Of a DNA stretch of 64,000 nt, positions 1-14,050 are shown one piece after another. The stretch lies in assembly GCA_044377495.1 (NCBI GenBank), contig JBILYY010000001.1, forward strand, positions 24,196 to 88,195, in the 5' to 3' direction. The stretch's first letter is position 1. Each line of letters starts with the position of its first letter. Source of the stretch: Bacteriovoracaceae bacterium. GTDB taxonomy: Bacteria > Bdellovibrionota > Bacteriovoracia > Bacteriovoracales > Bacteriovoracaceae. The translations under genes and the position numbers were made by a program. The notes below the pieces were generated by a model, which was given only the letters and a program-made list of their open reading frames with translations, was not told the DNA's origin and did no database searches.

Positions 1-686
1 TTTAAGGGGTTTTTGAATACACAGCCACAATTTTTAGTAGCAAGAGGCTGGGTTCTTTTTCGATACTCTAAATAATCGCGGATTTTTTGCGGAATTGTTT
101 CATCTATACCAAGGTGACTGATGGTTGCTGAAATAATAACTTCGCCGGGTCTGACAAAATTATTTTTGCGATAAGAAAAACTGTCTTTTGATATTAACTC
201 TTCTCGCAGTTCCCCATCAGGAGTTATCAGTTGAACATTTTTTACAAGGGATCCGATTTCGCCCAGATTAGTTCCAGCATTCATGAAAATAGCGCCACCC
301 AAAGAAGCCGGGATTCCAGTGAAAACTTCCCACCCCTTAAGCCCAAACTTAACAGCATGAGCGGTTAGATGATTAATTCCAAGCGAAGCAGGAATTAAAT
401 ATTCGTCCTTAACGGTATCGAAAATATTTTGATCAAAAGGTAGTTCTAAGTAAATTATAATATCTTTACATTGGGCAGGCAGAATCTGATTAGCACCCCA
501 ACCAACAATTAAATAAGATTTTTTTTCTTGATTTAAAATAGTAAGAGTCTTTTGCAGACCCTCAATGCTTTTTATTTTTAATAAATCGCCATGAGAATTC
601 AATTTGAATGTTGTATAACTTGTAAGGTTTTCATTTTCAAAAAATTCAACACCAGAAAGAGAGTGTAGCTTCTCTTTTAAATTCAT
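1..686 (-). CDS. murB: UDP-N-acetylenolpyruvoylglucosamine reductase, 3' end runs off the window; not in ORF track
   Basis: Manual translation from ATG at 686 (ATGA overlap with murC stop): MNLKEKLHS...VGWGANQIL...GIPASLGGAIFMNAG...FSYRKN...RKRTQPLATKNCGCVFKNP; MurB motifs and dcw position. Confidence 0.93.
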   Translation of the reverse strand, partial: MNLKEKLHSLSGVEFFENENLTSYTTFKLNSHGDLLKIKSIEGLQKTLTILNQEKKSYLIVGWGANQILPAQCKDIIIYLELPFDQNIFDTVKDEYLIPASLGINHLTAHAVKFGLKGWEVFTGIPASLGGAIFMNAGTNLGEIGSLVKNVQLITPDGELREELISKDSFSYRKNNFVRPGEVIISATISHLGIDETIPQKIRDYLEYRKRTQPLATKNCGCVFKNPL

Positions 687-2059
687 AATTCTTTGACCAT
701 TTCTCGAATATTTTTAGAAATTGAGCCCGCGCCTAAAGTTAAAAATATTTTGCCCGGTTGGTGATGACTTTTAAGCACTGGTCCCATTTCTTTTAGTGAT
801 GGTAAAAAACTGACCTGTTTACCATTTGCCTTCATGGCCAAAACGAGCGCCTCGCTAGAAATTCCATCGATCGGCTTTTCACTTGCGGCATAGATAGGGA
901 GTAAAAATAATTCATCACTTCCCTCAAAACATTCCTGGAATTCCTTCCAGAAATTCTGTGTTCGACTATAACGGTGTGGTTCAAACACAACACAAAGAGA
1001 ACGCTTGTCGACATTTTTAAGCGCCGTTATGGTTGCCCGCACTTCGGTAGGGTGATGGCCATAATCATCAATTACTAAGAAATCATTTTTATCGAACAGT
1101 TTTTCTAATCTTCTGCCCACGCCTTGAAATTTTAAAAGACCACTTTGAATGAAATTCCATTCGAGGCCTGCTTCGCGAGAAATTGAAATGGCAGCAAGAG
1201 TATTTGAAACATTATGAATGCCTAAAAGATGAGTTTTTATTTGTACTATTTTCTCATTCTTATAATAAAGGTCAAATGTCGTTCCACTCGCAGAAAGCTG
1301 AATATTCTTTGCCAGGTAATCAACTTCCTCGTCATTTGTTTCAATTCCATACCAAACCATTGGTCTTTTTATCCGGCTTTTGATCGCCAAAGTTGAGGCG
1401 TCATTGCCGTTAAGTGCAATTCTTCCATAAAAAGGTAGCTTGTTAACAAATTCTACAAAAGCTTCCACAACTTTTTCTTTCGTACCGTAAAAATCCAAAT
1501 GATCATCATCAATATTTGTAATGACGGCCATAATTGGATTTAGAAGAAGAAATGAACCGTCTGATTCATCAGCTTCAGCAATCAGGAATTCACCATCACC
1601 CTTTTGTGCATTTCCCCCAAGGTTACTGACAATCCCGCCAATAATGTGGGTGGCATCAAGTTTTGCTTCTTGAAAAATGGTGGCAATTAAACTCGTAGTT
1701 GTAGTTTTTCCGTGTGAACCTGCGACCGCAATTCCAAATTTAAGCCGCATAAGTTCGGCCAGCATTTCTGCACGTCTAATCATGGGGATTTTTAATTCTT
1801 GGGCACGAGAAAATTCAGGGTTTTTAGTATCAATAGCTGAGCTGTATACAATCAATGTTGCATCTTCAATATTGGATGCTAAGTGACCTAAGAAAATGCT
1901 GGCACCTTTTTTTTGAAGATTTTCAGTAACGGAAGATGAATTTAAATCTGAACCTGAAACTGTGTAGCCCAAATCCAAAAGGACTTCAGCAATACCACTC
2001 ATGCCGATTCCGCCAATACCAATAAAATGCAATTTTGTAGTTTTAAGAAATCCCAACAT
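683..2059 (-). CDS. murC: UDP-N-acetylmuramate--L-alanine ligase
   Basis: GIGGIGMSGIA, GSHGKTTTT, EADESDGSF, DDHLD, DDYGHHPTE, FEPHRYSRT motifs. Confidence 0.97.
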   Translation of the reverse strand: MLGFLKTTKLHFIGIGGIGMSGIAEVLLDLGYTVSGSDLNSSSVTENLQKKGASIFLGHLASNIEDATLIVYSSAIDTKNPEFSRAQELKIPMIRRAEMLAELMRLKFGIAVAGSHGKTTTTSLIATIFQEAKLDATHIIGGIVSNLGGNAQKGDGEFLIAEADESDGSFLLLNPIMAVITNIDDDHLDFYGTKEKVVEAFVEFVNKLPFYGRIALNGNDASTLAIKSRIKRPMVWYGIETNDEEVDYLAKNIQLSASGTTFDLYYKNEKIVQIKTHLLGIHNVSNTLAAISISREAGLEWNFIQSGLLKFQGVGRRLEKLFDKNDFLVIDDYGHHPTEVRATITALKNVDKRSLCVVFEPHRYSRTQNFWKEFQECFEGSDELFLLPIYAASEKPIDGISSEALVLAMKANGKQVSFLPSLKEMGPVLKSHHQPGKIFLTLGAGSISKNIREMVKEL

Positions 2060-3098
2060 GGTCTTGTATCTCTTTTAATATCTCAGAGCAGGTGTGATTA
2101 CCTGCGTGAGGTGCCTGAGAGTACTTTAACGCTTCCATTGAAGCCTTGACTAGGAATTCTTGTGCTTGTTTGAGGCACACATCGTGAGGACTTTTAGGGT
2201 CAAGGACCTCGACCGTGAAGTCGGATTCTTCTTTAAATATTTGTGCATTATATAACTGATGATTATCAGTAGCTTGAGGGTAAGGAAAAATAAGAACCGG
2301 TTTTTTTATGATGGCCAATTCTGATACAGTACTTGCTCCAGCTCGTGCGATAATAACGTCGCACCACTGATATTCGGCTTGGATATTATCGATGTATTCC
2401 ATTGGTTGGTATTCAACAACACTGGAAATTTCTGGAACTTTTTGGCCACTGCCAAGCTGGTGGTGGATACTCATGTTTGTAACAGAAGGGTTTTTTAAAA
2501 TATCAAAAATCACTTTATTTATTTGAGTTGCACCAAGGCTTCCACCAAAGACCAGAACTTTTAAATTTGTATCTATTTTTTTATTAGGTACAGGCTGAAT
2601 TGATTTACGGGTAGGATTTCCCACTACTCGAACTTTGTTGGCCAGACCTGAGGATAGGCCTTTGGTCTTGGTAAAATGCACAAATATTCGAGTAGAAATC
2701 CATCCAAGAATTTTGTTAGTCAGTCCCATAACAGCGTTTTGCTCTATGATAAACACTGGAACCCCTTGTAAAAAACCTGCTAAAAGGGTGGGACCACAAA
2801 CATATCCACCAGCACCAATAATAAATTTAGGTCGCTTGGTAATGTACAAAAATGAAATTGAAAAAAAACCTAAAAAATTTAAAACAATATTTTTAATAAG
2901 CGTGAAAGGGTTATTTGTTCTTAAAGGTTTAGAATTAAGGTGCCGGACATTTTGACCTTTAAACAATTTGTAATCTAGAGGCCTTTTGCCAGTGAGATAA
3001 AGAATTTCATAGCCCTGTTCTTTAAGCGCTTCACCAACTGCCAAAGCTGCATTGATATGTCCGCCGGTTCCACCTGCAACAAGTACTGCGTATTTCAT
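2043..3098 (-). CDS. murG: Undecaprenyl-PP-MurNAc-pentapeptide GlcNAc transferase
   Basis: GGTGGHI, GGYVCGP, EQNAVMG, GNP, GGSLGA, RAGASTVSE motifs. Confidence 0.95.
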   Translation of the reverse strand: MKYAVLVAGGTGGHINAALAVGEALKEQGYEILYLTGKRPLDYKLFKGQNVRHLNSKPLRTNNPFTLIKNIVLNFLGFFSISFLYITKRPKFIIGAGGYVCGPTLLAGFLQGVPVFIIEQNAVMGLTNKILGWISTRIFVHFTKTKGLSSGLANKVRVVGNPTRKSIQPVPNKKIDTNLKVLVFGGSLGATQINKVIFDILKNPSVTNMSIHHQLGSGQKVPEISSVVEYQPMEYIDNIQAEYQWCDVIIARAGASTVSELAIIKKPVLIFPYPQATDNHQLYNAQIFKEESDFTVEVLDPKSPHDVCLKQAQEFLVKASMEALKYSQAPHAGNHTCSEILKEIQDHVGIS

Positions 3099-3101
3099 GG
3101 A

Positions 3102-4268
3102 TTAATTAAATACACTTTTGAGCGCACCAATTGGAGATTGTTTTCCCTTGGCCTTAACATCTTTCACGTCGCTAGGCTGGATTTTAATGCATGCAAAAAC
3201 CAATCCGAGAGCCGCAAGATTGGCCACCATGGATGACCCTCCATAACTGATAAATGGAAGATTTAATCCCTTCGTTGGAAGAACACCTAAGACAACACCC
3301 ATATTCAGAAAAGCTTGAAAACCAATTGAAAAAATAATACTTGAAACCATTATGCTTCCCACACGGGACTTGAGCGAAATTGCCATTTTGAAGCCGATAA
3401 AAATGAAACATACGAACATTATGGCCGTGGTAATTACACCGACAAAACCTAACTCTTCCCCGACCACAGAAAAAATAAAATCATTATAGGCTTCGGGCAG
3501 ATAAAATAATTTCTCGTTACTATTTCCCAGACCTTGTCCAAAAAAAGAACCGTGCGCAAAAGCTAAAAATGATTGAATAACCTGAAAGCCGCTTCCTCTT
3601 GGGTCGGCCCATGGATCTAAAAAGGCAAGCAGACGTTTCACTCGGTATGGTGCAGAGATTAAAATTCCAAAGGCACCAATAAAGCCAACCACCATCGTTC
3701 CATATAGGTACTTACGCGGAAATGAACTTAGAAATGCAATAAACCCAATAATCATGGCGGAAATAAAAAATGTACCAAAGTCGGGTTGAAGAACAAAAAC
3801 TGCCAATGGATAGACCAATCCCGAAGCGTAAAGAACCTTTTGTTTCGAATCGTAGTTATTAAAATTTTCAAAATAACGGATCGCCGCCAACATAAGTGTG
3901 TATTTAATGAACTCACCCGGCTGAAGGTTCATAAAACCTAGGTTTAGCCAGCGTTTTGAACCCTTCATCATGACACCAATTCCAGGTACCAGAGTCAGAG
4001 TGATGACAAAGCTAAAAAGGGCATTAATCTTGTAAGCTTGTTTATAGAGATAAATAATTTTAAATTTTGAAAAGACTAAAGCTAAAGTTAATCCAAGGGC
4101 AACGAAGATTAATTGCTTATATAAAAAGAAGTAGCTGTTGCCCATGTTCTCAGTTGCGTACATATAGCTCGCAGAGAAAACCATAATCACGCCAAAGAGA
4201 GTCAGAAAAAAGACATTGATTAGGAAATAATTAGTTAACTTTTCTAGTCGGTTATTTGCGTCTTGCAT
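3102..4268 (-). CDS. ftsW: SEDS peptidoglycan polymerase FtsW
   Basis: Polytopic; GSKRWL, QPGEF, QPDFG, LPEAYNDFIF, PFISYGGSS; dcw position. Confidence 0.93.
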   Translation of the reverse strand: MQDANNRLEKLTNYFLINVFFLTLFGVIMVFSASYMYATENMGNSYFFLYKQLIFVALGLTLALVFSKFKIIYLYKQAYKINALFSFVITLTLVPGIGVMMKGSKRWLNLGFMNLQPGEFIKYTLMLAAIRYFENFNNYDSKQKVLYASGLVYPLAVFVLQPDFGTFFISAMIIGFIAFLSSFPRKYLYGTMVVGFIGAFGILISAPYRVKRLLAFLDPWADPRGSGFQVIQSFLAFAHGSFFGQGLGNSNEKLFYLPEAYNDFIFSVVGEELGFVGVITTAIMFVCFIFIGFKMAISLKSRVGSIMVSSIIFSIGFQAFLNMGVVLGVLPTKGLNLPFISYGGSSMVANLAALGLVFACIKIQPSDVKDVKAKGKQSPIGALKSVFN

Positions 4269-4316: not shown

Positions 4317-5699
4317 TTAAAGTTGGAAGATGAGTTTTTTGTAGTAGTTACCTTTTTCTTCAAAATCACGAAAAACGTCAGTACTGTCATTTCCTGGGCA
4401 CAATAGAATAGTGTCACCAGTTCGTGACTTTTGATAGGCCAGTAAAACTGACTCATCAAATGAACCAACAAGGTAGGTTTGAGTTGAATCACCAAGAACA
4501 CGGTTCATTGCTTCTTTCACTTCACCAACTAAAACCAGAACCCGAACTTTTTCTTTCATGATTCCGGCATATTTATCGTAGGTAACACCTTCGACTTCTT
4601 TACCACCGGCAATTAAAATGACGGGGTCTTTAAAGGCTTCAAGTGAAACTTTAAGTTCATCCATCGTTTCAGACTTGGAATCGTTATAAAAACGAACACC
4701 GTTCTTTTCAATGACAAATTCAAGTCGGTGAGGAATACCAGGAAACTTCTCAATACAGTGCTGAATTGAAAGATCAGATACTTTAAGCGCCTTACAAGCG
4801 GTTATAGCTGCCATCATGTTTTCACGGTTATTCACACCGACAATTCTCATATCTGTGACTTTAAATTCAGAGTGATAATGAATATTGGAATGAATGCGTT
4901 TATCGTGAAAATGAGTTCCTTGAATTTCAGAAATCACGCCCATCGTAACAAACGATTTTCTTGAATACCAAAATGTTTGAGCTTGAGAAGATCTTAAAAC
5001 AGAATTAGAAGCCAGTTTATCAAAATTAACAACTAGATAACTTTCAGGACCAAGGTTTCTTGCAACCTTTAATGCCGTATCAAGGTATTCAGCTGAAGTT
5101 TTGAAACGACCTTGAAGATTTTTTTCTTCAAGATTTGGATAAATGGCCATAACGGGTTTAAAGTTCTCAACAGTTTGAAGCTGCAAGGGAGAGACCTCAA
5201 TTACACAGTAATCAATTTCTTCTTTATTAGGTAATGAAAGAAAATTGATGAAAGGCTCTTCAGAAGTTCCACCAACAAAAACATTCTTTTTATCAACCTT
5301 AAGGGTGTAACCGATCATGTGTGCCGTAATAGTTCTTCCATGGCTTCCACAGACGGCAACTATTGGTCTTTTGCAGTTTTCATAGGCAAAAGCAAAGTCA
5401 GAAAACACCGCTCTACCGTGCTCACGCGCAACTTTTAATTGTGGAAGTTGTGGATCAACCGATGAAGAGTAAACCACCATATCCGCATCTATAAAATCTT
5501 CATCTTTGTGCTCACCAAGTGTCATTGTGGGCACAGGTGTAATTTTTCTTAAGCGCTTAACCTGTTTATTTAAATCAAAGATCGGCTTGATATCCGTAAC
5601 TTTAATTTCACAACCTAATTGAGTAAAAAGATGAATGAGCGCAAACCCAGTCTTTCCAAGTCCAACGACTAAGACTTTTTTGCCTTTATATTTTTCCAT
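4317..5699 (-). CDS. murD: MurD-family protein with degenerate catalytic motifs (possible pseudo-ligase)
   Basis: GLGKTG, PHRLE, NDSK and C-terminal architecture plus dcw position identify MurD; P-loop reads GSHGRT and the DHLDRY and carbamyl-Lys motifs are absent. Confidence 0.85.
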   Translation of the reverse strand: MEKYKGKKVLVVGLGKTGFALIHLFTQLGCEIKVTDIKPIFDLNKQVKRLRKITPVPTMTLGEHKDEDFIDADMVVYSSSVDPQLPQLKVAREHGRAVFSDFAFAYENCKRPIVAVCGSHGRTITAHMIGYTLKVDKKNVFVGGTSEEPFINFLSLPNKEEIDYCVIEVSPLQLQTVENFKPVMAIYPNLEEKNLQGRFKTSAEYLDTALKVARNLGPESYLVVNFDKLASNSVLRSSQAQTFWYSRKSFVTMGVISEIQGTHFHDKRIHSNIHYHSEFKVTDMRIVGVNNRENMMAAITACKALKVSDLSIQHCIEKFPGIPHRLEFVIEKNGVRFYNDSKSETMDELKVSLEAFKDPVILIAGGKEVEGVTYDKYAGIMKEKVRVLVLVGEVKEAMNRVLGDSTQTYLVGSFDESVLLAYQKSRTGDTILLCPGNDSTDVFRDFEEKGNYYKKLIFQL

Positions 5700-5715
5700 G
5701 AGAACTCCTTAAAAT

Positions 5716-6792
5716 TTATCTTAGTTTCAGTGTTGCAAGTGCAAGAATGGCAAAAACCAGACTCACAATCCAGAAGCGAACAATAACCTTGGTTTCTGGC
5801 CAACCTTTTAATTCAAAATGATGATGAATAGGTGCCATTTTAAAAATTCTTTTTCCTCTTGTTTTAAAAGATGCCACTTGTAAAATCACGGACAGTGCTT
5901 CGATGACAAATATCCCACCGATTAGGACAAACAAGATTTCGTTTTTTGTTAAAACGGCAATCGTTCCGAGACATCCACCAAGAGACAGAGACCCAACGTC
6001 TCCCATGAAAATCTCGGCAGGATAAGCGTTATACCACAAAAATCCCACACTTGCCCCAATTATGGCAGCAACTAAAACAAGTAGCTCTCCCACATCTGGG
6101 ACGTAAGGAATGAGTAGATAGTTTGATAATTCAACGTGCCCGGCCAAATAAGAAAGTAAGCCCAGCGTTGCTGCAGAAGTTATAGTAGGTCCAATCGCTA
6201 ACCCATCTAACCCATCTGTTAAGTTTAAGGCATTTGAGGAGCCCACAATTACGAATGCGGCAAATGGAACGTACCACCATCCAAGATCAACCACCGGATC
6301 TTTTAAAAATGGGACGTAAACTTGCGAGTCAGTTATTCCATATTTAATCATTACAAAAGCTGCCATTAAAGCAGTTAAAAACTGCCAGGCCAACTTTTGG
6401 CGAGCACTAACACCTTTTGTATTTTTCTTGAGTACTTTAAGGTAGTCATCAAGACCCCCCAATAGGAAATAAGAAACTGTTACAAAAAGAGTGATTAAAA
6501 AGGGAAATGACACAAAGTTACCGCAAACGGCACAGGCAATGACGGCACTGCCCAAAATAAACACACCGCCAAAAGTAGGGGTTCCCTGCTTTTTCTTGTG
6601 AGATGCCGGTCCCTCGTCACGAATCGTTTGCCCAAACTGCTTTAATTTCATTAATGCTATAAATCGTTTGCCCCAAACAATTGAAACTACCGTGGCAATG
6701 ATAAACGCAAGAAACGACCTGAAAGTAATGTATTTGAATACATTGAACAAATGACTAGATTGACTTAGTGGGTAAAGCCAATAATAAAGCAT
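5716..6792 (-). CDS. mraY: Phospho-N-acetylmuramoyl-pentapeptide transferase
   Basis: KKQGTPTFGG, DDYLK, NALNLTDGLDGL, FMGDVGSL, MAPIHHHFE. Confidence 0.97.
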   Translation of the reverse strand: MLYYWLYPLSQSSHLFNVFKYITFRSFLAFIIATVVSIVWGKRFIALMKLKQFGQTIRDEGPASHKKKQGTPTFGGVFILGSAVIACAVCGNFVSFPFLITLFVTVSYFLLGGLDDYLKVLKKNTKGVSARQKLAWQFLTALMAAFVMIKYGITDSQVYVPFLKDPVVDLGWWYVPFAAFVIVGSSNALNLTDGLDGLAIGPTITSAATLGLLSYLAGHVELSNYLLIPYVPDVGELLVLVAAIIGASVGFLWYNAYPAEIFMGDVGSLSLGGCLGTIAVLTKNEILFVLIGGIFVIEALSVILQVASFKTRGKRIFKMAPIHHHFELKGWPETKVIVRFWIVSLVFAILALATLKLR

Positions 6793-6817: not shown

Positions 6818-8224
6818 TTAAGTTATATCGAAGAGTGACTCCAATTGTAAAGAGCGAGATCCTTTTATAAAGTGAATTTGATATTTCTTTAAAACGATAC
6901 TACGAAAATCTTCCTTAAATTCAGCAGCACTTGGTCTTCCCGCGGCTTGTGGGTGACCTTTAAGGTAATCGCCGCTGAATCGACCAATAAAATAAACCTG
7001 ATTAAATCCAAGTAATTTAATAAAACCACCTACATCCTTGTGATATTGAGCTGAAGAATCTCCCAACTCGTTCATATCACCCAAAACGACGCAGGCCTGA
7101 TCTAACGTAAAACCTTGGCTTAGAACGCTCTCTTTAAAACCTTCTAACGCTGCTTTCATAGAAGATGGATTAGCATTGTACGCGTCAAGAAAAACAGGGC
7201 GACCATCAAACTCTATCCATTCCGAGCGATTTTTTGTTGGGCGAAAATTTGAAGCGGCAATAAGTATTTGTTCACGTGATTCAGGATAAAAATGACTAGC
7301 AATAAAAACACACGTTATGAGATTTAATTTATTATGGCGTCCAGTAATGTGATTATTCGTTGCAACTAAACTTTGACCTTTGTATTCAATTTGGGCGCCA
7401 TTTTCTAAAAAGGCAACTTTGGCTTCAGCTTCAACCGATGTACCGAAAGTAACAGCACCATCAAAAGAGTTAAAATTCTTCAAAAAATTGTCGTCTTTAT
7501 TTATAAGATAAAAACCTTTGCCTCGAGAAACCTCTTTAACTGCATGGTAAAGATGGCCCTCTTCATCAAATACTTTTTCTTCTGTTTCGAAAAATTCCAG
7601 ATGAGTTGCACCAATATTCGTAGTAAGACCTGCGTTTGGTGAGGCGATATCACAAAGAACTTTAATTTCGCCAGGATGATTACTTCCAAGTTCTAGAACC
7701 ACCATTTCAGTCTGATCATTAACTTGTAAAAGAGTTAAGGGGACACCCAAGTGATTATTGTTGTTTTTTTCTGTTGCAACAATTTTACCAGGCTTAATTG
7801 TCTTTAAAATATGCGACAACATTTCTTTGTGAGTCGTTTTACCATTTGATCCTGAAATTGCAAAAACTGTATTTTTTGGATTAAGATTTTTCCAATTATT
7901 AATGTGATGATGAGAAAGTTCCTGCAAAAATGTAACCGAGTCTGAAACTGGCATAAAAGCAGTTTTAGGAAATTTGAGTTTAAGATCATTTACTTTTGAT
8001 TGATTAATAAGATCATCTTGAAAAACAATGAGCGGACACTTCTGAGAGAGTAAGTTTTCAATTACATCCAACGGGTTTACTTTAATTCCAGGTATAGCTA
8101 CAAAAAATGAAGGGTGATGATATTTCCTTGTATCAGTACAAAAACTCAGACTTAAATTTAAATCAATTTCTTTGGGAATAGATAGAACCGAAGGACATTT
8201 TTTAAAATGTGTTAAAGAAATCAT
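6818..8224 (-). CDS. murF: UDP-MurNAc-tripeptide--D-Ala-D-Ala ligase
   Basis: GSNGKTT, NNHLGVPLTL, ELGSNHPGEI, DAYNANPSSM, LGDMNELG, KGSRS. Confidence 0.95.
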   Translation of the reverse strand: MISLTHFKKCPSVLSIPKEIDLNLSLSFCTDTRKYHHPSFFVAIPGIKVNPLDVIENLLSQKCPLIVFQDDLINQSKVNDLKLKFPKTAFMPVSDSVTFLQELSHHHINNWKNLNPKNTVFAISGSNGKTTHKEMLSHILKTIKPGKIVATEKNNNNHLGVPLTLLQVNDQTEMVVLELGSNHPGEIKVLCDIASPNAGLTTNIGATHLEFFETEEKVFDEEGHLYHAVKEVSRGKGFYLINKDDNFLKNFNSFDGAVTFGTSVEAEAKVAFLENGAQIEYKGQSLVATNNHITGRHNKLNLITCVFIASHFYPESREQILIAASNFRPTKNRSEWIEFDGRPVFLDAYNANPSSMKAALEGFKESVLSQGFTLDQACVVLGDMNELGDSSAQYHKDVGGFIKLLGFNQVYFIGRFSGDYLKGHPQAAGRPSAAEFKEDFRSIVLKKYQIHFIKGSRSLQLESLFDIT

Positions 8225-9582
8225 ATTTTGTTCCTTGAAATAAACTCTTCGACTTCACGTATGTCACTATATGGATGTTTCACCCCATTAATGAGAATAT
8301 AATCTTCGTGACCTTTTCCGGCGAGTAATAGGACCTCATTATCCTTTAATTCAGAAAAAGCAATATTAACAGCTTTGGGACGTTCTGTAATTGATTGAAA
8401 TTTTTTACCTTTAATACCTGACAATATATCTGAAATAATTTGTTCTGGATTTTCTGAACGTGGATTATCACTGGTAACGTAGATTTCATCGGCCCAGTCT
8501 GCAACCACCGAAGCCATTATTGGCCGTTTTAGACGATCACGATCGCCACCACATCCAAAAAGTACTTTCAGTTTATAATTGGGAAATGTTTTTTTTATTC
8601 CCTGACAAATATTTTTTAATGCGTCTGGAGTATGCGCGTAATCTACTACAATATAGCTATTTCTAAAGGCTCGAATATAAAAGCGACCGTCTGGTGGTAA
8701 TAATGAATCATAATTGATTGTTACAGATTCATTAAATGCACTTTCAATTAAGGCCTTCGCTACTTCTAAATTATTTTTATTAAACTGAGTTCTGAAAAAT
8801 AACGGCAACTCACCTGCAATTTCAGGCGCCATATTTGCCTTAGATGATGTCCGCTTTAATTTGTCAAAAAGATCTTTCTGCTCTGAAGGCACAAATAACT
8901 TTTTATTAGGCAACAGCTTGTTTAATATCAAACTTTTGGCATCATAGTATTTATCCATCGTCTGGTGATAATCAAGGTGATCTTGTGAAAAGGACAGCCA
9001 TCCAGCCGCATCAAAACTTATGTCACACAATCGATCCTGAACCAATGCATGAGAACTGACTTCTGTTACACAAAAATCCTTATCCACACCATACTTGTAC
9101 AAATACTTTCTGAAATCTATAAAGCTTGGAGAAGTAAGGCCAAAATCTAAAAGTGTTTTGTTGTATTCACGCACTCCAAGAGTACCAATACTAAACCCTT
9201 TTCTCCCGGCCAGATGTCCAATTTGTAAAACCAAATCCGCCGTAGTCGTTTTTCCATTCGTTCCAGTTATACCAATCATTTTAATTTTTGGCTGAGGATA
9301 AATTCTATCTAGAATTTTTTTCTGAATATGGGTCCAGAGTTCTTCATTGATAATGCTTACATTTCGGGGAATATTTTGCACACTTCTATTTATAACCAAC
9401 CATGCATATTGCGAGTCTTTTATTCTATCTAAAAAAAGTTGCTCACTTTTGGTATCATCTGTCAGTTTATAAAAGAGAATGCTTTGGGGAGTGGAATCCT
9501 GTGTTCGCCAATGAATATCATTTATTAGTACTTGTGGGATTGATTCATTTAAAATTTTTCCAAGCTCATCATTATTCAGCAT
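8221..9582 (-). CDS. murE: UDP-MurNAc-dipeptide--meso-DAP ligase (ATG 9582 preferred over ORF-track 9603)
   Basis: GTNGKTT, EVSSH, QDHLDYH, DYAHTPD, GCGGDRD, DNPR (meso-DAP-type motif). Confidence 0.95.
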   Translation of the reverse strand: MLNNDELGKILNESIPQVLINDIHWRTQDSTPQSILFYKLTDDTKSEQLFLDRIKDSQYAWLVINRSVQNIPRNVSIINEELWTHIQKKILDRIYPQPKIKMIGITGTNGKTTTADLVLQIGHLAGRKGFSIGTLGVREYNKTLLDFGLTSPSFIDFRKYLYKYGVDKDFCVTEVSSHALVQDRLCDISFDAAGWLSFSQDHLDYHQTMDKYYDAKSLILNKLLPNKKLFVPSEQKDLFDKLKRTSSKANMAPEIAGELPLFFRTQFNKNNLEVAKALIESAFNESVTINYDSLLPPDGRFYIRAFRNSYIVVDYAHTPDALKNICQGIKKTFPNYKLKVLFGCGGDRDRLKRPIMASVVADWADEIYVTSDNPRSENPEQIISDILSGIKGKKFQSITERPKAVNIAFSELKDNEVLLLAGKGHEDYILINGVKHPYSDIREVEEFISRNKI

Positions 9583-11491
9583 ATGTCGGTGCTTCAAATT
9601 CAAGACGCAAGTTTATATTGCTCGCAAACGGTGTACCAGATGGAATAGATTGTTTTGTTACAACTCCAAAACCATTAATTTCAATTTGAATTGACCGGTC
9701 TTGAGCTAATTGCATGGCACTTGATTTGTCCAATCCTGTAAAGCTTGGCATAAAGCCTGGGGCAAACACTTTCTGCGCTGATGCCTGTTGTGATTGAACA
9801 GTGTCCATATTCTCTTTGTTGGATTTTTCATCATACTTTGCAAATTGAGCAAAATCTTTTTTCTTATAAAGGATGTATTGGGTAATTTTTTTTACTACAG
9901 GTGCTGCAGTTGCGCCTCCGTAGTATCCGTTTGCCGTTGGATGATCGATATATGCCATAACAACAAATTTTTTATTAACGTTAACAGGAAAACCAATAAA
10001 GCTTCCTATATAACCATCATAACCACCACGTGGAGAAACTCGCTGGGCCGTGCCTGTTTTACCGGCCATATCGTAATGAGGAATGATTGCATCGTTACCA
10101 GTGCCCTCGTTAACTGCATTCACTAGCATTTTAGTAACATTAATAGCCGTCTTCTCAGATAAAATTTTATTCTCAGGTTTTATTTGACTGACTTCATTTT
10201 TTAAAAGAGTTGGCTTAACTAAATATCCACCATTGGCGATGGCAGCGTAAGTCCGAAGCATTTGAATAGCTGTGGTTGCAATTCCTTGTCCAAAACTTAT
10301 ATTACTCAGACTGAGAGGTCGAACTTTATCAGTAGCTTTGTAACTAACAATACCCTTCGATTCTCCACGGATTTCCACTCCCGTTTTTTGTCCGAGCTGA
10401 AATTTATCCATGGTTTGACGTAGCTTGGGATATTTCAAATTGAAGGCTATTTTAGTAATACCTACGTTAGAGCTAAATTTTAAAATATCTCCAACCGTAA
10501 GCCATTCGAATTTCTCGTGCGTTTCTGCTTCTGATATCCAATGATTTTGTACTTTTAATTTTCCACCTTCACAGAAAAATTTTGTCTCCGGTCTAGCGAC
10601 TTTATGCTCAAGGGCAGATGCAACAGTAATTGTTTTAAAAATTGAACCTGGCTCAAATGGATCTGTTACAAAAGCCATTTTTCTTTGTTCTTGTGGATAG
10701 GCCCCGGGTTTGTTTGGATCAAAAGTAGGATAGTTTCCTATTGCTAAAATCTCACCTGTTTCAGCGTCCATAACTGCAGCTCCACCTCGGTGGGCTTTAT
10801 GGTGCACCACTGCTTCCTGCAAATAGCTTTCGAGAGCACCCTGAATATCTTTATCCAGTGAAAGTTGAATATCTGCAGCGTAAGCTTCTGAAGATTTGGA
10901 TTCAAATTTTATGGGACGCCCTTTGGCATCATGAATGTATTTTATAACCTGATGTGTACCCTTGAGCTCTTTATTCATACTGAATTCAATGCCAGCTAAA
11001 CCAGTATTATCAATACCTACAAATCCTAGTGTTTGCGCCATTAATTCACGGTTTGGGTAAACCCTATGAGAATATGATTCTACAAATATTCCTTCTAGTT
11101 TTTTTATTTTCTGTAGTTGAGACTCTGAAAGAAATACTTTTTTTGCCAGCCAAGTATATTTTGTTCTTTTTTGAACAAGTGACTTTAGTTTTGGGTAGGT
11201 AAGTTCAGGGACAACTTGTGAAAGGTTTTTAAGTTTATTATAAAAAGTGGCGTCTTTATTTTTAGGAATCGTGAAAAGATTATAAACGTGAACATTTATG
11301 GCAAGAGGACTTCCGTTGCGATCAAGAATATTTCCACGATTGGGAAAGGCTTTTACTTCTCGTATAAACTGGCTTTTTGCGTACGACAGAAGTCTTTCTT
11401 TATTAATGACCTGAATATAAAAAGCTTTACTGATCACAGCTGCAAAAAGAAAACAAAATACAATAAAACTGAAAAAAATCCTATTTTTCAC
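9572..11491 (-). CDS. ftsI: Class B penicillin-binding protein with C-terminal PASTA-like domain
   Basis: N-terminal TM, RGNILDRNG, SIFK (SxxK), SSN, KTG; tail MPSFTGL...QSIPSG resembles PASTA. Confidence 0.93.
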   Translation of the reverse strand: MKNRIFFSFIVFCFLFAAVISKAFYIQVINKERLLSYAKSQFIREVKAFPNRGNILDRNGSPLAINVHVYNLFTIPKNKDATFYNKLKNLSQVVPELTYPKLKSLVQKRTKYTWLAKKVFLSESQLQKIKKLEGIFVESYSHRVYPNRELMAQTLGFVGIDNTGLAGIEFSMNKELKGTHQVIKYIHDAKGRPIKFESKSSEAYAADIQLSLDKDIQGALESYLQEAVVHHKAHRGGAAVMDAETGEILAIGNYPTFDPNKPGAYPQEQRKMAFVTDPFEPGSIFKTITVASALEHKVARPETKFFCEGGKLKVQNHWISEAETHEKFEWLTVGDILKFSSNVGITKIAFNLKYPKLRQTMDKFQLGQKTGVEIRGESKGIVSYKATDKVRPLSLSNISFGQGIATTAIQMLRTYAAIANGGYLVKPTLLKNEVSQIKPENKILSEKTAINVTKMLVNAVNEGTGNDAIIPHYDMAGKTGTAQRVSPRGGYDGYIGSFIGFPVNVNKKFVVMAYIDHPTANGYYGGATAAPVVKKITQYILYKKKDFAQFAKYDEKSNKENMDTVQSQQASAQKVFAPGFMPSFTGLDKSSAMQLAQDRSIQIEINGFGVVTKQSIPSGTPFASNINLRLEFEAPTYAE

Positions 11492-11502
11492 AGATGTACA
11501 AC

Positions 11503-11817
11503 CTAGGGTATAAGTATTATTTGTTCAGGACCTGGTTCTTTTAAACCATATGTCGCTGCAAATTCGCGCAGCTTTGGTACAGACATTTCACGTGCACGCT
11601 GAGCTTTTAATTCTTTATTATTAATAACTGCTTTATCGATATTAATTTTGAGATTATTTAGTGAATAAGCTTGCTCAATTCCCTTCATTCGAAATGCAAC
11701 AAATAGTACAGCAAGCGTTGTGAAAGTAAGAGTGAAAGGTAGGGCCTGAGGATTAAAGAGAAACTCCATCAAACGATTATTGAATTTAAGTTTTGAACCT
11801 TTTTTTCTTAGTGCCAT
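11503..11817 (-). CDS. ftsL: FtsL-like cell division protein
   Basis: Basic N-terminus, single TM, coiled coil, lies between rsmH and ftsI; AGGGAGG RBS before ATG 11817. Confidence 0.75.
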   Translation of the reverse strand: MALRKKGSKLKFNNRLMEFLFNPQALPFTLTFTTLAVLFVAFRMKGIEQAYSLNNLKINIDKAVINNKELKAQRAREMSVPKLREFAATYGLKEPGPEQIILIP

Positions 11818-12760
11818 CAACCCTCCCTAGTTGAGATTCTCGTTGTAGTATTCGAAGTTTTGCACTTCGTGAACGAGAATTTATAGACAGCTCTTCTTCC
11901 GTAGCTGTGAGTGGCTTCTTAGTTAAAATTGTAACAGGAAAATCTTGTTTCTCCAGTATTTCTTTGAACGTGTGTTTTACAATTCGATCTTCGAGAGAAT
12001 GGAAACTGATAATTGCAAGAACTCCTCCCTCTGATAAATAAGGCAACAGTTTTGGTATAGTACTTTCCAACACTCTTAATTCATCATTTACTGCGATCCT
12101 TAAAGCCTGAAAAGATCGAGTGGCTGGATGAGTTTTCTGATGACGGTCTTTGGCCGGATAAGCATGGAAACATATGTCTTCCAATTCACTCGTTGTTTCA
12201 ATTTTCTTGGTCATGCGGAGTTCACAAATCTTGGCAGCAATTCTCCGGGAAAGCCTCTCCTCACCGTAGGTGAAAAGAAGGTCTGCAATCTCTTTTTCAG
12301 AGAGAGTATTGAGCAAATCGGCAGCAGTGGGTGTGGAATTATCACCATGATTCATGCGCATATCAAGTGGTGCATCAGCACGAAAGCTAAAGCCTCGTTC
12401 CATCTTGTCAAATTGATGGGATGAGACCCCAAGATCCATCAAGATTCCGGCAAATTTTTGCTGCATTTGATTCTGTTCGCACCACTCTGGAAATTCCACA
12501 AAGTTCATCGGAAGAAGTTTTACACTACCAACTTTGCCCCTATGGATAATATTTTCTTCGCCATTTTTTAAAGCATCCGGATCTTGATCTACAGAATAAA
12601 CCGTAGAACCAGCGATATGGTCCGACAGCGCGAAGGTATGTCCACCGGCGCCAAATGTTAGATCGGCAAACGATAACGAGCCTGAAGCTTTAGAACCTAA
12701 TTCTAAAGCTTCAAGACATTCTTTTAACATTACTGAATAGTGCTTAAGATATTCGGTCAT
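11786..12760 (-). CDS. rsmH: 16S rRNA m4C1402 methyltransferase
   Basis: HYSVM, DLTFGAGGH, DLGVSSHQ, RGFSF, PLDMRM, FQALRIAVNDEL, SFHSLEDR, RSRSAKLR. Confidence 0.97.
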   Translation of the reverse strand: MTEYLKHYSVMLKECLEALELGSKASGSLSFADLTFGAGGHTFALSDHIAGSTVYSVDQDPDALKNGEENIIHRGKVGSVKLLPMNFVEFPEWCEQNQMQQKFAGILMDLGVSSHQFDKMERGFSFRADAPLDMRMNHGDNSTPTAADLLNTLSEKEIADLLFTYGEERLSRRIAAKICELRMTKKIETTSELEDICFHAYPAKDRHQKTHPATRSFQALRIAVNDELRVLESTIPKLLPYLSEGGVLAIISFHSLEDRIVKHTFKEILEKQDFPVTILTKKPLTATEEELSINSRSRSAKLRILQRESQLGRVDGTKKKRFKT

Positions 12761-13605
12761 TATTTTAAGATAGTTTCTAAAATTTCTTTATGAGATGGCA
12801 GGTGAAGAGTTGGATCTGTCATTACTGCATATTGATTTTCTGCAGTAAATTTTATCGGATTATTTACTAAGCTCGGGATTGCTTCGAGGACAAATTTTTG
12901 GGCCGAGATATAGTTTGATTTCATGACATCCATTATCTCTTGAACAGTACAATGCTCTTCTTTCCAACAATCGTAATCAGTAACCATGGCAACTGTTGCA
13001 TAGGCTATTCCAGCTTCCTTTGCCAAGAAAGCTTCCGGCACGTTTGTCATTCCTATAACTGAAGCACCAAATCCACGATAAATTTTCGATTCTGCTCGAG
13101 TTGAAAACTGTGGACCTTCAATGCAGATATATGTTCCACCTAAGTGCGAAGTAACTCCCGCTTTTTGGCAAGCTTCGTATAGACGCTTCTGGAGGCCAGC
13201 TTCAATCGGATTAGCAGCTGAAACGTGGCCAACAATACCATCATCAAAGAAAGTTCTCTTACGTAAGCCCTTAGTCCAATCAATAAACTGATCAACTAAG
13301 ACAAAATGCTTAGGGGCGTATTCTTCCTGGAGTGAACCAACAGCAGAGATACTAACGATTGTATTTACACCAAGCTTTTTTAAAGCATAAATATTTGCGC
13401 GGTAATTTACTTCTGAGGGAGTAAATTTGTGGCCAAGACCGTGACGTGGAAGAAAATAGAAGGATGAACCTTCTACTTCGCATTCCATAATGTCTGCACT
13501 TGGATCTCCAAACGGAGTACTAACCTTGATTTGGTTTTTTACTTTAATGGCATCAAGTTTATAAATTCCTGATCCACCAATAACTGCAACCTTAATATTG
13601 GCCAT
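12760..13605 (-). CDS. mtnP: S-methyl-5'-thioadenosine phosphorylase
   Basis: IGGSG, TPFG, PRHG, VNYRANI, EGPQFSTRAES, GMT, VTDYDCW. Confidence 0.92.
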   Translation of the reverse strand: MANIKVAVIGGSGIYKLDAIKVKNQIKVSTPFGDPSADIMECEVEGSSFYFLPRHGLGHKFTPSEVNYRANIYALKKLGVNTIVSISAVGSLQEEYAPKHFVLVDQFIDWTKGLRKRTFFDDGIVGHVSAANPIEAGLQKRLYEACQKAGVTSHLGGTYICIEGPQFSTRAESKIYRGFGASVIGMTNVPEAFLAKEAGIAYATVAMVTDYDCWKEEHCTVQEIMDVMKSNYISAQKFVLEAIPSLVNNPIKFTAENQYAVMTDPTLHLPSHKEILETILK

Positions 13606-13612
13606 AAATTCC

Positions 13613-14050
13613 TTAAGCCATCATTCCAGTTAAATCCGAAACCTTGCCAAGTGATTTGGACTGTCGGCCTATAAAACTGTTGGATTCATCTCTTTCAGAT
13701 TCTTCTTTGCACTGGATACACATTTCTGCTGTTGGTCTTGCCAATAAACGTTCAAAACGAATTCCTTCACCGCAGTCACTGCATAGACCATATTCATCCA
13801 TGTCAAATTTCTTCAAAGCTTTCTCTATTTTTTTAACATAGAAAACTTCACGATTTCTGAAACGAAGTAAATGCGAGTTGATATAGTCTGTAATTGACTG
13901 CTCAACCTCATCACCACCCTCAGGTTTAGATAGTTCAATATTTGATGCATTAACCTGATCACTAAAAACAAGACTATTTTTTTCCTCTATAAGCTTTTGC
14001 TTAAGAGTTTCAATTTGTCTTTTAGTAAGTGCTCTAACTTTTTCAGCCAT
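13613..14050 (-). CDS. DksA/TraR family C4 zinc-finger protein
   Basis: Coiled coil then YGLCSDCGEGI..ERL.ARP...CIQC; tip motif DEVEQS differs from DxxDxA. Confidence 0.88.
   Translation of the reverse strand: MAEKVRALTKRQIETLKQKLIEEKNSLVFSDQVNASNIELSKPEGGDEVEQSITDYINSHLLRFRNREVFYVKKIEKALKKFDMDEYGLCSDCGEGIRFERLLARPTAEMCIQCKEESERDESNSFIGRQSKSLGKVSDLTGMMA

Follow-up and report, generated by a model that had tools for sequence, protein, structure and literature searches.

A conserved MurD orthologue with a degenerate active site in the dcw cluster of Bacteriovoracaceae, beside a canonical MurD encoded elsewhere

The dcw cluster and its MurD-like protein

The gene described here is a murD-like gene of a Bacteriovoracaceae bacterium (assembly GCA_044377495.1, contig JBILYY010000001.1), which is located in the division and cell wall (dcw) cluster within a stretch of 64,000 nucleotides that is called the window in the following. 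On the minus strand, the cluster has the order rsmH, a short ftsL-like open reading frame (ORF), ftsI, murE, murF, mraY, the murD-like gene, ftsW, murG, murC and the start of murB (Table 1), and the murD-like gene begins 16 nt past the mraY stop codon (5716-5718). The ORF is open over all 460 amino acids (aa), as had already been stated in an earlier reading of the DNA made without database searches (the sequence-only reading), which described the gene as full length with neither a stop nor a frameshift, and the product contains the three Pfam domains MurD-like_N, Mur_ligase_M and Mur_ligase_C. With 265.6 bits, the protein only just passes the cut-off of the murD model TIGR01087 (211.95 bits); canonical dcw MurDs from other families of the same phylum reach 410-457 bits.

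Table 1. Features of the murD-like gene and neighbouring genes, with window coordinates (residue names without further mention refer to the window protein)
Feature	Position	Strand	Description	Basis
murD-like gene	4317-5699	-	460 aa; dcw-cluster MurD orthologue with degenerate active site	ORF, Pfam, alignment, AlphaFold2 model
Ribosome-binding site of the murD-like gene	5705-5710	-	AAGGAG, strong Shine-Dalgarno	5 nt before ATG
Arg122	5334-5336	-	replaces P-loop Lys115, otherwise invariant in Mur ligases; codon AGA	alignment and codon read
T145	5265-5267	-	replaces Asn138 (contact to UDP-MurNAc-L-Ala)	alignment
K193-N194	5118-5123	-	replace D182-H183 (Mg2+/substrate loop)	alignment
A209	5073-5075	-	replaces carbamylated Lys198	alignment
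His-rich beta-hairpin segment W244-F279	4860-4970	-	WYSRKSF...GTHFHDKRIHSNIHYHSEF; clade-specific	invariant alignment columns
Remodelled D-Glu pocket	4590-4670	-	E344 replaces T321, E370 replaces K348	alignment
mraY	5716-6792	-	upstream neighbour of the murD-like gene	Pfam Glycos_transf_4
ftsW	3102-4268	-	downstream neighbour of the murD-like gene	Pfam FTSW_RODA_SPOVE
murF	6818-8224	-	canonical P-loop GSNGKTT	profile matches and motif check
murE	8221-9603	-	canonical P-loop GTNGKTT	profile matches and motif check
murG	2043-3098	-		Pfam
murC	683-2059	-	canonical	TIGR01082, 519.5 bits

The active site was compared in a MAFFT alignment of 64 sequences, which contained E. coli K-12 MurD, 21 orthologues of the genus, 23 copies of a second MurD paralog described below and 19 relatives from the phylum, and the substitutions were cross-checked in HMMER alignments to solved MurD structures. 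E. coli residues are numbered as in the crystal structures, i.e., translated position minus 1. In addition to the replacements listed in Table 1, N113 has become H120, so that the P-loop reads GSHGRT, P72/G73 have become S79/S80, N322 has become T345 and R425 has become K449. Both kinds of alignment place every motif that the sequence-only reading had reported as replaced (P-loop, SPG, Asn138, His183, Lys198, Thr321, Lys348 and the terminal Arg) at the respective catalytic position, and they offer no equivalent active-site residues in exchange. They also agree on what is kept, namely GLGKTG, the Mg-binding Glu, NxxN, HRLE and NDSK. In E. coli numbering, the retained residues are D35, E157, Q162, N268, N271, H301, R302, D317, K319 and S415, which correspond to D36, E168, Q173, N291/N294, H324/R325, D340/K342 and S439 of the window protein, together with G15/T17 of GLGKTG.

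Judged from its sequence, the protein is therefore a MurD by descent, but not a MurD by its defining catalytic features. It has the three-domain MurD fold, a TIGR01087 score above the cut-off, the position between mraY and ftsW and vertical descent, and it carries the superfamily invariants E157, N268, N271, R302 and D317 (E168, N291, N294, R325 and D340). It lacks, however, the hallmark P-loop Lys, His183 and Lys198, and the substrate contacts Asn138, Thr321 and Lys348 are replaced by T145, E344 and E370, respectively. The same pattern of substitutions is fixed in 21 of 21 orthologues of the genus, and its core (R115, T138 and no His183) holds in 25 genomes of ~24 genera, with Met138 in one genome and His183 in one genome as the exceptions. 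Since the pattern is fixed in the genus and its core is shared across ~24 genera, it is not due to chance.

The neighbouring Mur ligases do not share these changes. The P-loop Lys (GxxGKT) and the hallmark motifs are intact in MurC and MurE, which the sequence-only reading had noticed as well, and also in MurF. The window MurF scores 254 bits with TIGR01143, which is below the cut-off of 288.6, with a P-loop and a DAYNANP motif that are still canonical. A mraZ gene was not detected in the stretch directly upstream of rsmH (window 11786-14050), which encodes a PNP_UDP_1 phosphorylase (12760-13605) followed by a DksA/TraR zinc-finger protein (13613-14050).

An AlphaFold2 model of the window protein, calculated with a 100-sequence alignment, has the MurD fold with a mean predicted local distance difference test (pLDDT) value of 93 and a predicted template modelling (pTM) score of 0.90, and the former His183 loop is its sole low-confidence part; single-sequence input gave a pLDDT of 41.7. 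In a Foldseek search with this model, MurD structures rank first (3LK7, E = 8e-32). Template modelling (TM) scores of the predicted structure are higher with apo or open MurDs (0.73-0.77) than with liganded or closed ones (0.63-0.65), which is weak evidence at best for a preferred conformation.

A canonical murD outside the cluster

Besides the dcw copy, the window's own assembly (G000) contains a second murD, which was found by a profile search of its contigs with the murD model. This outside murD is split by contig ends, with the N-terminal 370 aa at the end of contig C167 (L001) and the C-terminal 192 aa at the start of contig C72 (L003). Both parts overlap by ~120 aa with two mismatches, and therefore strain heterogeneity in the metagenome bin has probably broken the assembly at this point. 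The motifs GTNGKTT, GGNIG, NHSERY, YAKAKY, HNEAN, HRLE and NDAKSTN comprise all catalytic residues, which are invariant across the family genomes compared. Both murD genes are present in 24 of 24 relatives of the genus, single-contig genomes included: in G011 they are located ~1 Mb apart on one chromosome, and G163 likewise harbors both on a single-contig chromosome. The closest relative, G003, has a dcw copy that is 99.6% and an outside copy that is 97% identical to those of the window genome. In the family, the outside paralog is present in 96 of 104 genomes that are at least 95% complete, with an identity between genera of only 37-58%. The sequence-only reading had argued that D-glutamate (D-Glu) addition would require a paralog elsewhere, and such an intact second murD indeed exists in the window genome and all 24 relatives, so that the dcw gene is not the only murD. 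Furthermore, the glutamate racemase MurI is present in the genus (225 bits). Going by these residues, D-Glu addition is probably done by the outside canonical MurD.

The outside copy has features in common with a known pathway. MurD2 of Xanthomonas oryzae (XOO_1320), which acts together with MurL (XOO_1319), is likewise a second MurD-type ligase encoded off the dcw cluster beside a conserved partner gene (PMC8788868, PMC5808125), and its signature residues are E(182), R(348), P(414) and F(416) (PMC8788868). In the outside MurD (L028 1025-2350, P0122, and family orthologues) R348, P414 and F/Y416 are invariable and position 182 is N, S or T, so that three of the four signature residues are matched. 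This likeness concerns the outside paralog only. MurD2 organisms have no glutamate racemase, in contrast to the window genus with its MurI, and the partner of the outside copy carries a Methyltransf_32 domain. Moreover, MurD2 is catalytically active, and the MurD2/MurL papers (PMC8788868, PMC5808125) describe no degenerate dcw copy beside it.

The partner just mentioned is a protein of 415 aa (L001 233-1480 on contig C167 of the window genome, minus strand; the same at L072 and L100-L134). In 30 of 31 loci of the family, its gene and the outside murD are arranged divergently, and the 415-aa proteins share 27-61% identity and the invariant Cys/His motifs LHTCG and CCY. Searches against NCBIfam, Pfam and the PDB gave weak methyltransferase matches alone and nothing that ties the protein to MurL, for which neither a model nor a sequence was compared; an exact-sequence look-up did not yield a named protein. 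So conserved a pair suggests a functional link between the outside murD and its neighbour. In the outside MurD, Asp35 is Asn in most genomes and Ser or Asp in a few.

Selection, distribution and descent

The dcw copy is conserved far more strictly than the canonical one. Within the genus, the dcw copies share 84-99% identity and the canonical paralogs 54-97%, and the genus-wide nonsynonymous divergence (dN, Nei-Gojobori) is 0.074 for the dcw copy versus 0.214 for the paralog. The ratio to synonymous divergence (dN/dS) of the dcw copy is ~0.035 where measurable, dS being saturated. Between the window genome and G011, the murD-like protein is with 90.7% identity the best conserved protein of the dcw cluster, ahead of MraY (89.1%), FtsW (85.2%), MurG and FtsI (76.6% each), MurC (75.8%), MurF (68.7%) and MurE (60.6%), and at larger distances its conservation is level with that of MraY and far above that of the true Mur ligases. 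The mean column entropy, calculated for the same organisms, is 0.85 bits in the dcw clade versus 1.71 in the paralog. The dcw copy is far more conserved than the paralog at residues 31-50, 241-280, 291-300, 331-340 and 411-430, and it is less conserved only in the catalytic and D-Glu loops 171-180, 191-200, 341-350 and 431-440. Such very strong purifying selection on a copy with a degenerate site is consistent with the two options that the sequence-only reading had put forward, namely either a conserved pseudo-ligase, serving as scaffold or sensor of nucleotide precursors, or an enzyme whose chemistry is new.

Among the 25 genomes of ~24 genera, R115, E157, Q162, D35, N271 and D317 are invariant, and T16, T138, N268, R302 and K319 each vary in two lineages at most. 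Position 183, on the other hand, is occupied by N, T, V, F, Y, K, R or H in the family, positions 113 and 348 drift too, and the loss of K198 is confined to the subclade that contains the window genus. The P-loop Arg is encoded by AGA (10), CGT (9), CGC (8), CGA (6), AGG (3) and CGG (1), and since all six Arg codons are used, it is Arg itself that is selected at this position. The His-rich hairpin (Table 1) has an entropy of 0.3-0.6 bits versus 2.1-2.6 in the canonical paralog and is absent from canonical MurDs. The segment AYQKSR.GD is common to the canonical dcw MurDs of the phylum and was thus inherited rather than newly acquired.

The order was sampled with 151 genomes from 57 genera, and orthologues of the dcw copy with 56-100% identity are present in 149 of these genomes and in 56 of the genera, among them Peredibacter, Halobacteriovorax and Bacteriovorax. 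Absences rest on a two-stage search, genome quality figures are rounded, and the relatives are not independent samples. In a tree of 92 sequences, the degenerate proteins (the window genus, a 66%-identical representative and a copy from an order-level relative with a 0.9-Mb genome) form a clade with support 100, a stem of 0.78 and short inner branches, which is nested inside the dcw-MurD clade of the Bdellovibrionota (support 95). This shape fits a dcw orthologue that would have stayed in place, undergone one fast change and then been frozen. The outside paralog falls outside the dcw clade of the phylum in the free tree. However, a sister relationship between the paralog and the degenerate copy was not rejected by an approximately unbiased (AU) test (p = 0.63), and the likelihood of the constrained tree was higher. 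Therefore, no claim is made on duplication versus horizontal transfer of the paralog.

A comparable case is found in another family of the phylum, f4 (G027 and G036). There, the copy between mraY and ftsW (L061, L064) has E157A/V, K198N and K319Y/C, and canonical second copies are encoded elsewhere, which form a separate clade different from the Bacteriovoracaceae paralog (L062, L065, L059). G032 carries such an f4-type second copy alongside a still-canonical dcw MurD. Family f4 is an independent parallel to the degenerate dcw MurD within the phylum. In the 1.5-Mb genomes of family f3 (G035 and G026; L060, L063), the dcw MurD has H183K, K198Y, N138H, K319R and S415P with the P-loop Lys kept, and no second MurD copy was found in either genome at E <= 1e-30. 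The 0.9-Mb genome G025 of the same order as the window (L066, L067) has a dcw MurD with K115Q, H183Y and K198L as well as a divergent second copy; no glutamate racemase match was found in this genome and no murF between murE and mraY.

The dcw copy is also kept in genomes that have lost the canonical pathway around it. In genus g32, G066 has six genes with a Mur-ligase domain, encoding MurC, MurE, MurF, the MurD-like protein, the paralog and an Mpl-like ligase. In its congeners G079 and G097, each assembled in two contigs, this set is reduced to MurF, the Mpl-like ligase and the MurD-like protein. In G079 (L140, C2:1604000-1622000), murF directly follows ftsI in contiguous sequence without Ns, and neither murG nor murC follows ftsW. 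The MurD-like gene of G079 is intact and 81.5% identical to that of G066, with a dN/dS of ~0.06. Without MurC the supposed substrate of MurD should be missing, and therefore G079 and G097 keep the MurD-like protein, along with the late steps of the pathway, where the ancestral reaction would be pointless. Mpl-type ligases join a ready-made peptide to UDP-N-acetylmuramate (UDP-MurNAc), and the gene content suggests that some predators of the family make UDP-MurNAc-peptide by salvage of prey peptides alone. A third genome, G093, is without MurC and the paralog, but has kept MurE.

A clean family-wide profile of co-loss of paralog and MurC did not emerge, and only the cases of G079, G097 and G093 are used here. 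No MurC match at E <= 1e-90 was found in G050, G149, G055, G070, G119, G074 and G077, in which the outside MurD and the Mpl-like ligase are present. Of the four that were examined in more detail, G050 and G149 lack any further MurC-like gene with a Mur_ligase_M domain, G119 shows no more than a weak additional match, and in G055 the domain is part of an 886-aa ORF. All family genomes that were searched for an Mpl-like ligase have one; in the window genome it is a 481-aa MurC/Mpl-type ligase on contig C59 (L006 1378-2820), which matches Mpl best with 271 bits, below the equivalog cut-off of 388.7.

A putative scaffold or switch and its alternatives

Taken together, the dcw copy probably has a new non-catalytic job. 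We consider it rather likely that the window gene is a vertically inherited dcw murD orthologue which has become a nucleotide-binding pseudo-ligase acting as a scaffold or switch, with D-Glu addition carried out by the outside MurD. The protein keeps the three-domain fold, the UDP-binding residues of the N-domain, the adenine/ribose contacts and the Mg2+ glutamate, and the invariant P-loop Arg would allow nucleotide binding without phosphoryl transfer. The exchange of Lys for Arg in the Walker-A motif is a classic change in other P-loop proteins, in which binding is kept and transfer abolished. Since this exchange coincides with retained adenine/ribose contacts, Mg2+ glutamate and UDP-binding residues, a ligand-binding switch or scaffold is suggested. 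With His183 lost, the carbamylated Lys198 lost in the window genus, the D-Glu pocket turned acidic and a new, strictly conserved His-rich hairpin added, the protein would bind nucleotide and/or UDP-MurNAc-peptide rather than catalyse.

Partners would have to be sought in the late, membrane-linked steps, i.e., MurF, MraY and FtsW. MurD is known to bind a MurE-MurF chimera with a dissociation constant of ~0.8 uM, and MurD-FtsW fusions occur naturally (PMC10214165). These published interactions, the position between mraY and ftsW, a degree of conservation that matches MraY and FtsW, and the joint retention with MurF and Mpl suggest a role at the MurF-MraY-FtsW end of wall synthesis. A more specific version, which we put forward only tentatively, is that the dcw MurD is an obligatory non-hydrolysing subunit at this end, which may bind ATP and UDP-MurNAc-peptide and couple the supply and hand-over of precursors to lipid I formation and septal wall synthesis.

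Several observations weigh against a scaffold or switch. The retention of E157, N268, N271, R302, D317 and K319 is also compatible with a protein that still works as a nucleotide-using enzyme, and the degree of degeneracy varies in the family, with K198 kept in the subclade without the window genus and His183 kept in one genome. The phyletic pattern is not perfectly clean, since several genera without detectable MurC nevertheless have the canonical paralog, which in turn went undetected in a few fragmented genomes of the family. Furthermore, what may be expected of a Walker-A Lys-to-Arg exchange is taken by analogy from P-loop families other than the Mur ligases, and MraY, FtsW and MurF are proposed as partners on the grounds of gene order, matched conservation and co-retention.

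The first alternative is that the dcw protein is still an enzyme acting on UDP-MurNAc-peptide, but with new chemistry, e.g., the addition of a basic amine in the acidic pocket (E344, E370) or a metal-dependent reaction via the His hairpin. The very strong constraint on the whole protein would be expected for an enzyme, as would the retained Mg2+ glutamate and the contacts to adenine/ribose and UDP; E370, which is invariant in the family, and in most genomes also E344 flip the charge of the D-Glu pocket, and the conserved His cluster is specific to the clade. We nevertheless regard this as unlikely. All Mur ligases depend on the P-loop Lys and on His183 for their acyl-phosphate chemistry. In the dcw proteins, Arg invariably stands in place of this Lys, and position 183 varies freely among eight residue types, which is the signature of a site that is no longer used. 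Moreover, the catalytic loops are the sole regions that are less conserved than in the paralog. We know of no Mur-ligase-family enzyme without the P-loop Lys, and this is counted against new chemistry as well. Because the P-loop Arg is invariant, position 183 is free and the gene is retained without murC, murE and a canonical murD, the non-catalytic reading is favoured.

It is still less probable that the dcw copy remains the housekeeping D-Glu ligase with Arg replacing Lys, the outside copy having another role such as ligation of L-Glu in the manner of MurD2. Such a view is in line with the score above the TIGR01087 cut-off, with the canonical position between mraY and ftsW, with the MurD2 (L-Glu ligase) residues R348, P414 and F416 of the outside copy (PMC8788868) and with the pairing of this copy with a conserved gene. 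However, K115, H183, K198, N138, T321 and K348 are all replaced in the dcw protein, its pocket for the D-Glu carboxylate is now acidic, and G079 and G097 keep the gene without MurC, so that the supposed substrate cannot be made. As a glutamate racemase is present, a canonical D-Glu ligase is to be expected, and the outside copy has all residues needed for it. Finally, gene decay, faulty assembly or contamination by a canonical copy from another organism in the bin can practically be dismissed, even if the assembly is a 300-contig metagenome-assembled genome with 2.2% contamination and a canonical copy split over two contig ends with mismatches in the overlap, because the frame is intact in >150 genomes at a dN/dS of ~0.035, both genes are located on one single-contig chromosome in G011 and in G163, and G003 carries both copies at 97-99.6% identity.

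If the dcw protein is indeed a non-catalytic scaffold or switch, only few known proteins can be compared with it. With MurD (EC 6.3.2.9; TIGR01087; E. coli 1UAG, 2UAG, 4UAG) it shares genomic position, phylogeny, the three-domain fold and the N-terminal UDP-binding motif. It differs from MurD in the P-loop Arg, in the replacement of His183, Lys198 (in the genus), Asn138, Thr321, Lys348 and Arg425, in its relaxed loops and its additional His-rich hairpin, and in that genomes of the window type carry a separate canonical MurD as well. Catalytically dead cell-wall enzymes that act as regulators or adaptors and are under selection, such as CwlM and EnvC, are derived from hydrolases. The nearest precedent is PAP11 of plants, in which a Mur-ligase fold was kept structurally in a multiprotein machine after its role in peptidoglycan synthesis had become dispensable (PMC11561172). 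As would be expected of a pseudoenzyme of this kind, the window protein combines a Mur-ligase fold with strong selection that is concentrated outside the active site. PAP11 is, however, eukaryotic, derived from MurE and recruited to transcription, whereas the window protein belongs to a peptidoglycan-making bacterium and is encoded inside the dcw operon. Searches of the literature brought up no bacterial pseudoenzyme derived from a Mur ligase, nor anything relevant on MurD, degenerate or not, in Bdellovibrio, Halobacteriovorax or Peredibacter.

MurD belongs to the textbook examples of an essential enzyme and is a target for antibiotics, and mraY-murD-ftsW is among the most conserved gene orders in bacteria. 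In public records (NCBI, UniRef, JGI) the dcw proteins are named UDP-N-acetylmuramoyl-L-alanine--D-glutamate ligase, so that the D-Glu step may be attributed to the wrong gene when the metabolism of these predators is reconstructed. Here, a protein appears to have been split from its chemistry: the paralog would catalyse, and the dcw copy, with an active site that is probably dead, is more strictly conserved than any true Mur ligase. This gives a handle on the long-suspected non-catalytic roles of Mur proteins in complexes with MurE/MurF, MraY, MurG and FtsW, which can be tested in cultured carriers such as Halobacteriovorax marinus, Peredibacter starrii and Bacteriovorax. If the proposed role at the MurF-MraY-FtsW end is true, the survival of the dcw protein after catalysis had moved to a paralog, independently on two occasions in the phylum, and in genomes without murC, murE and a canonical murD would mean that MurD quite generally has a structural function besides its catalytic one. 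The stubborn retention of murD between mraY and ftsW across bacteria would then be easier to explain.

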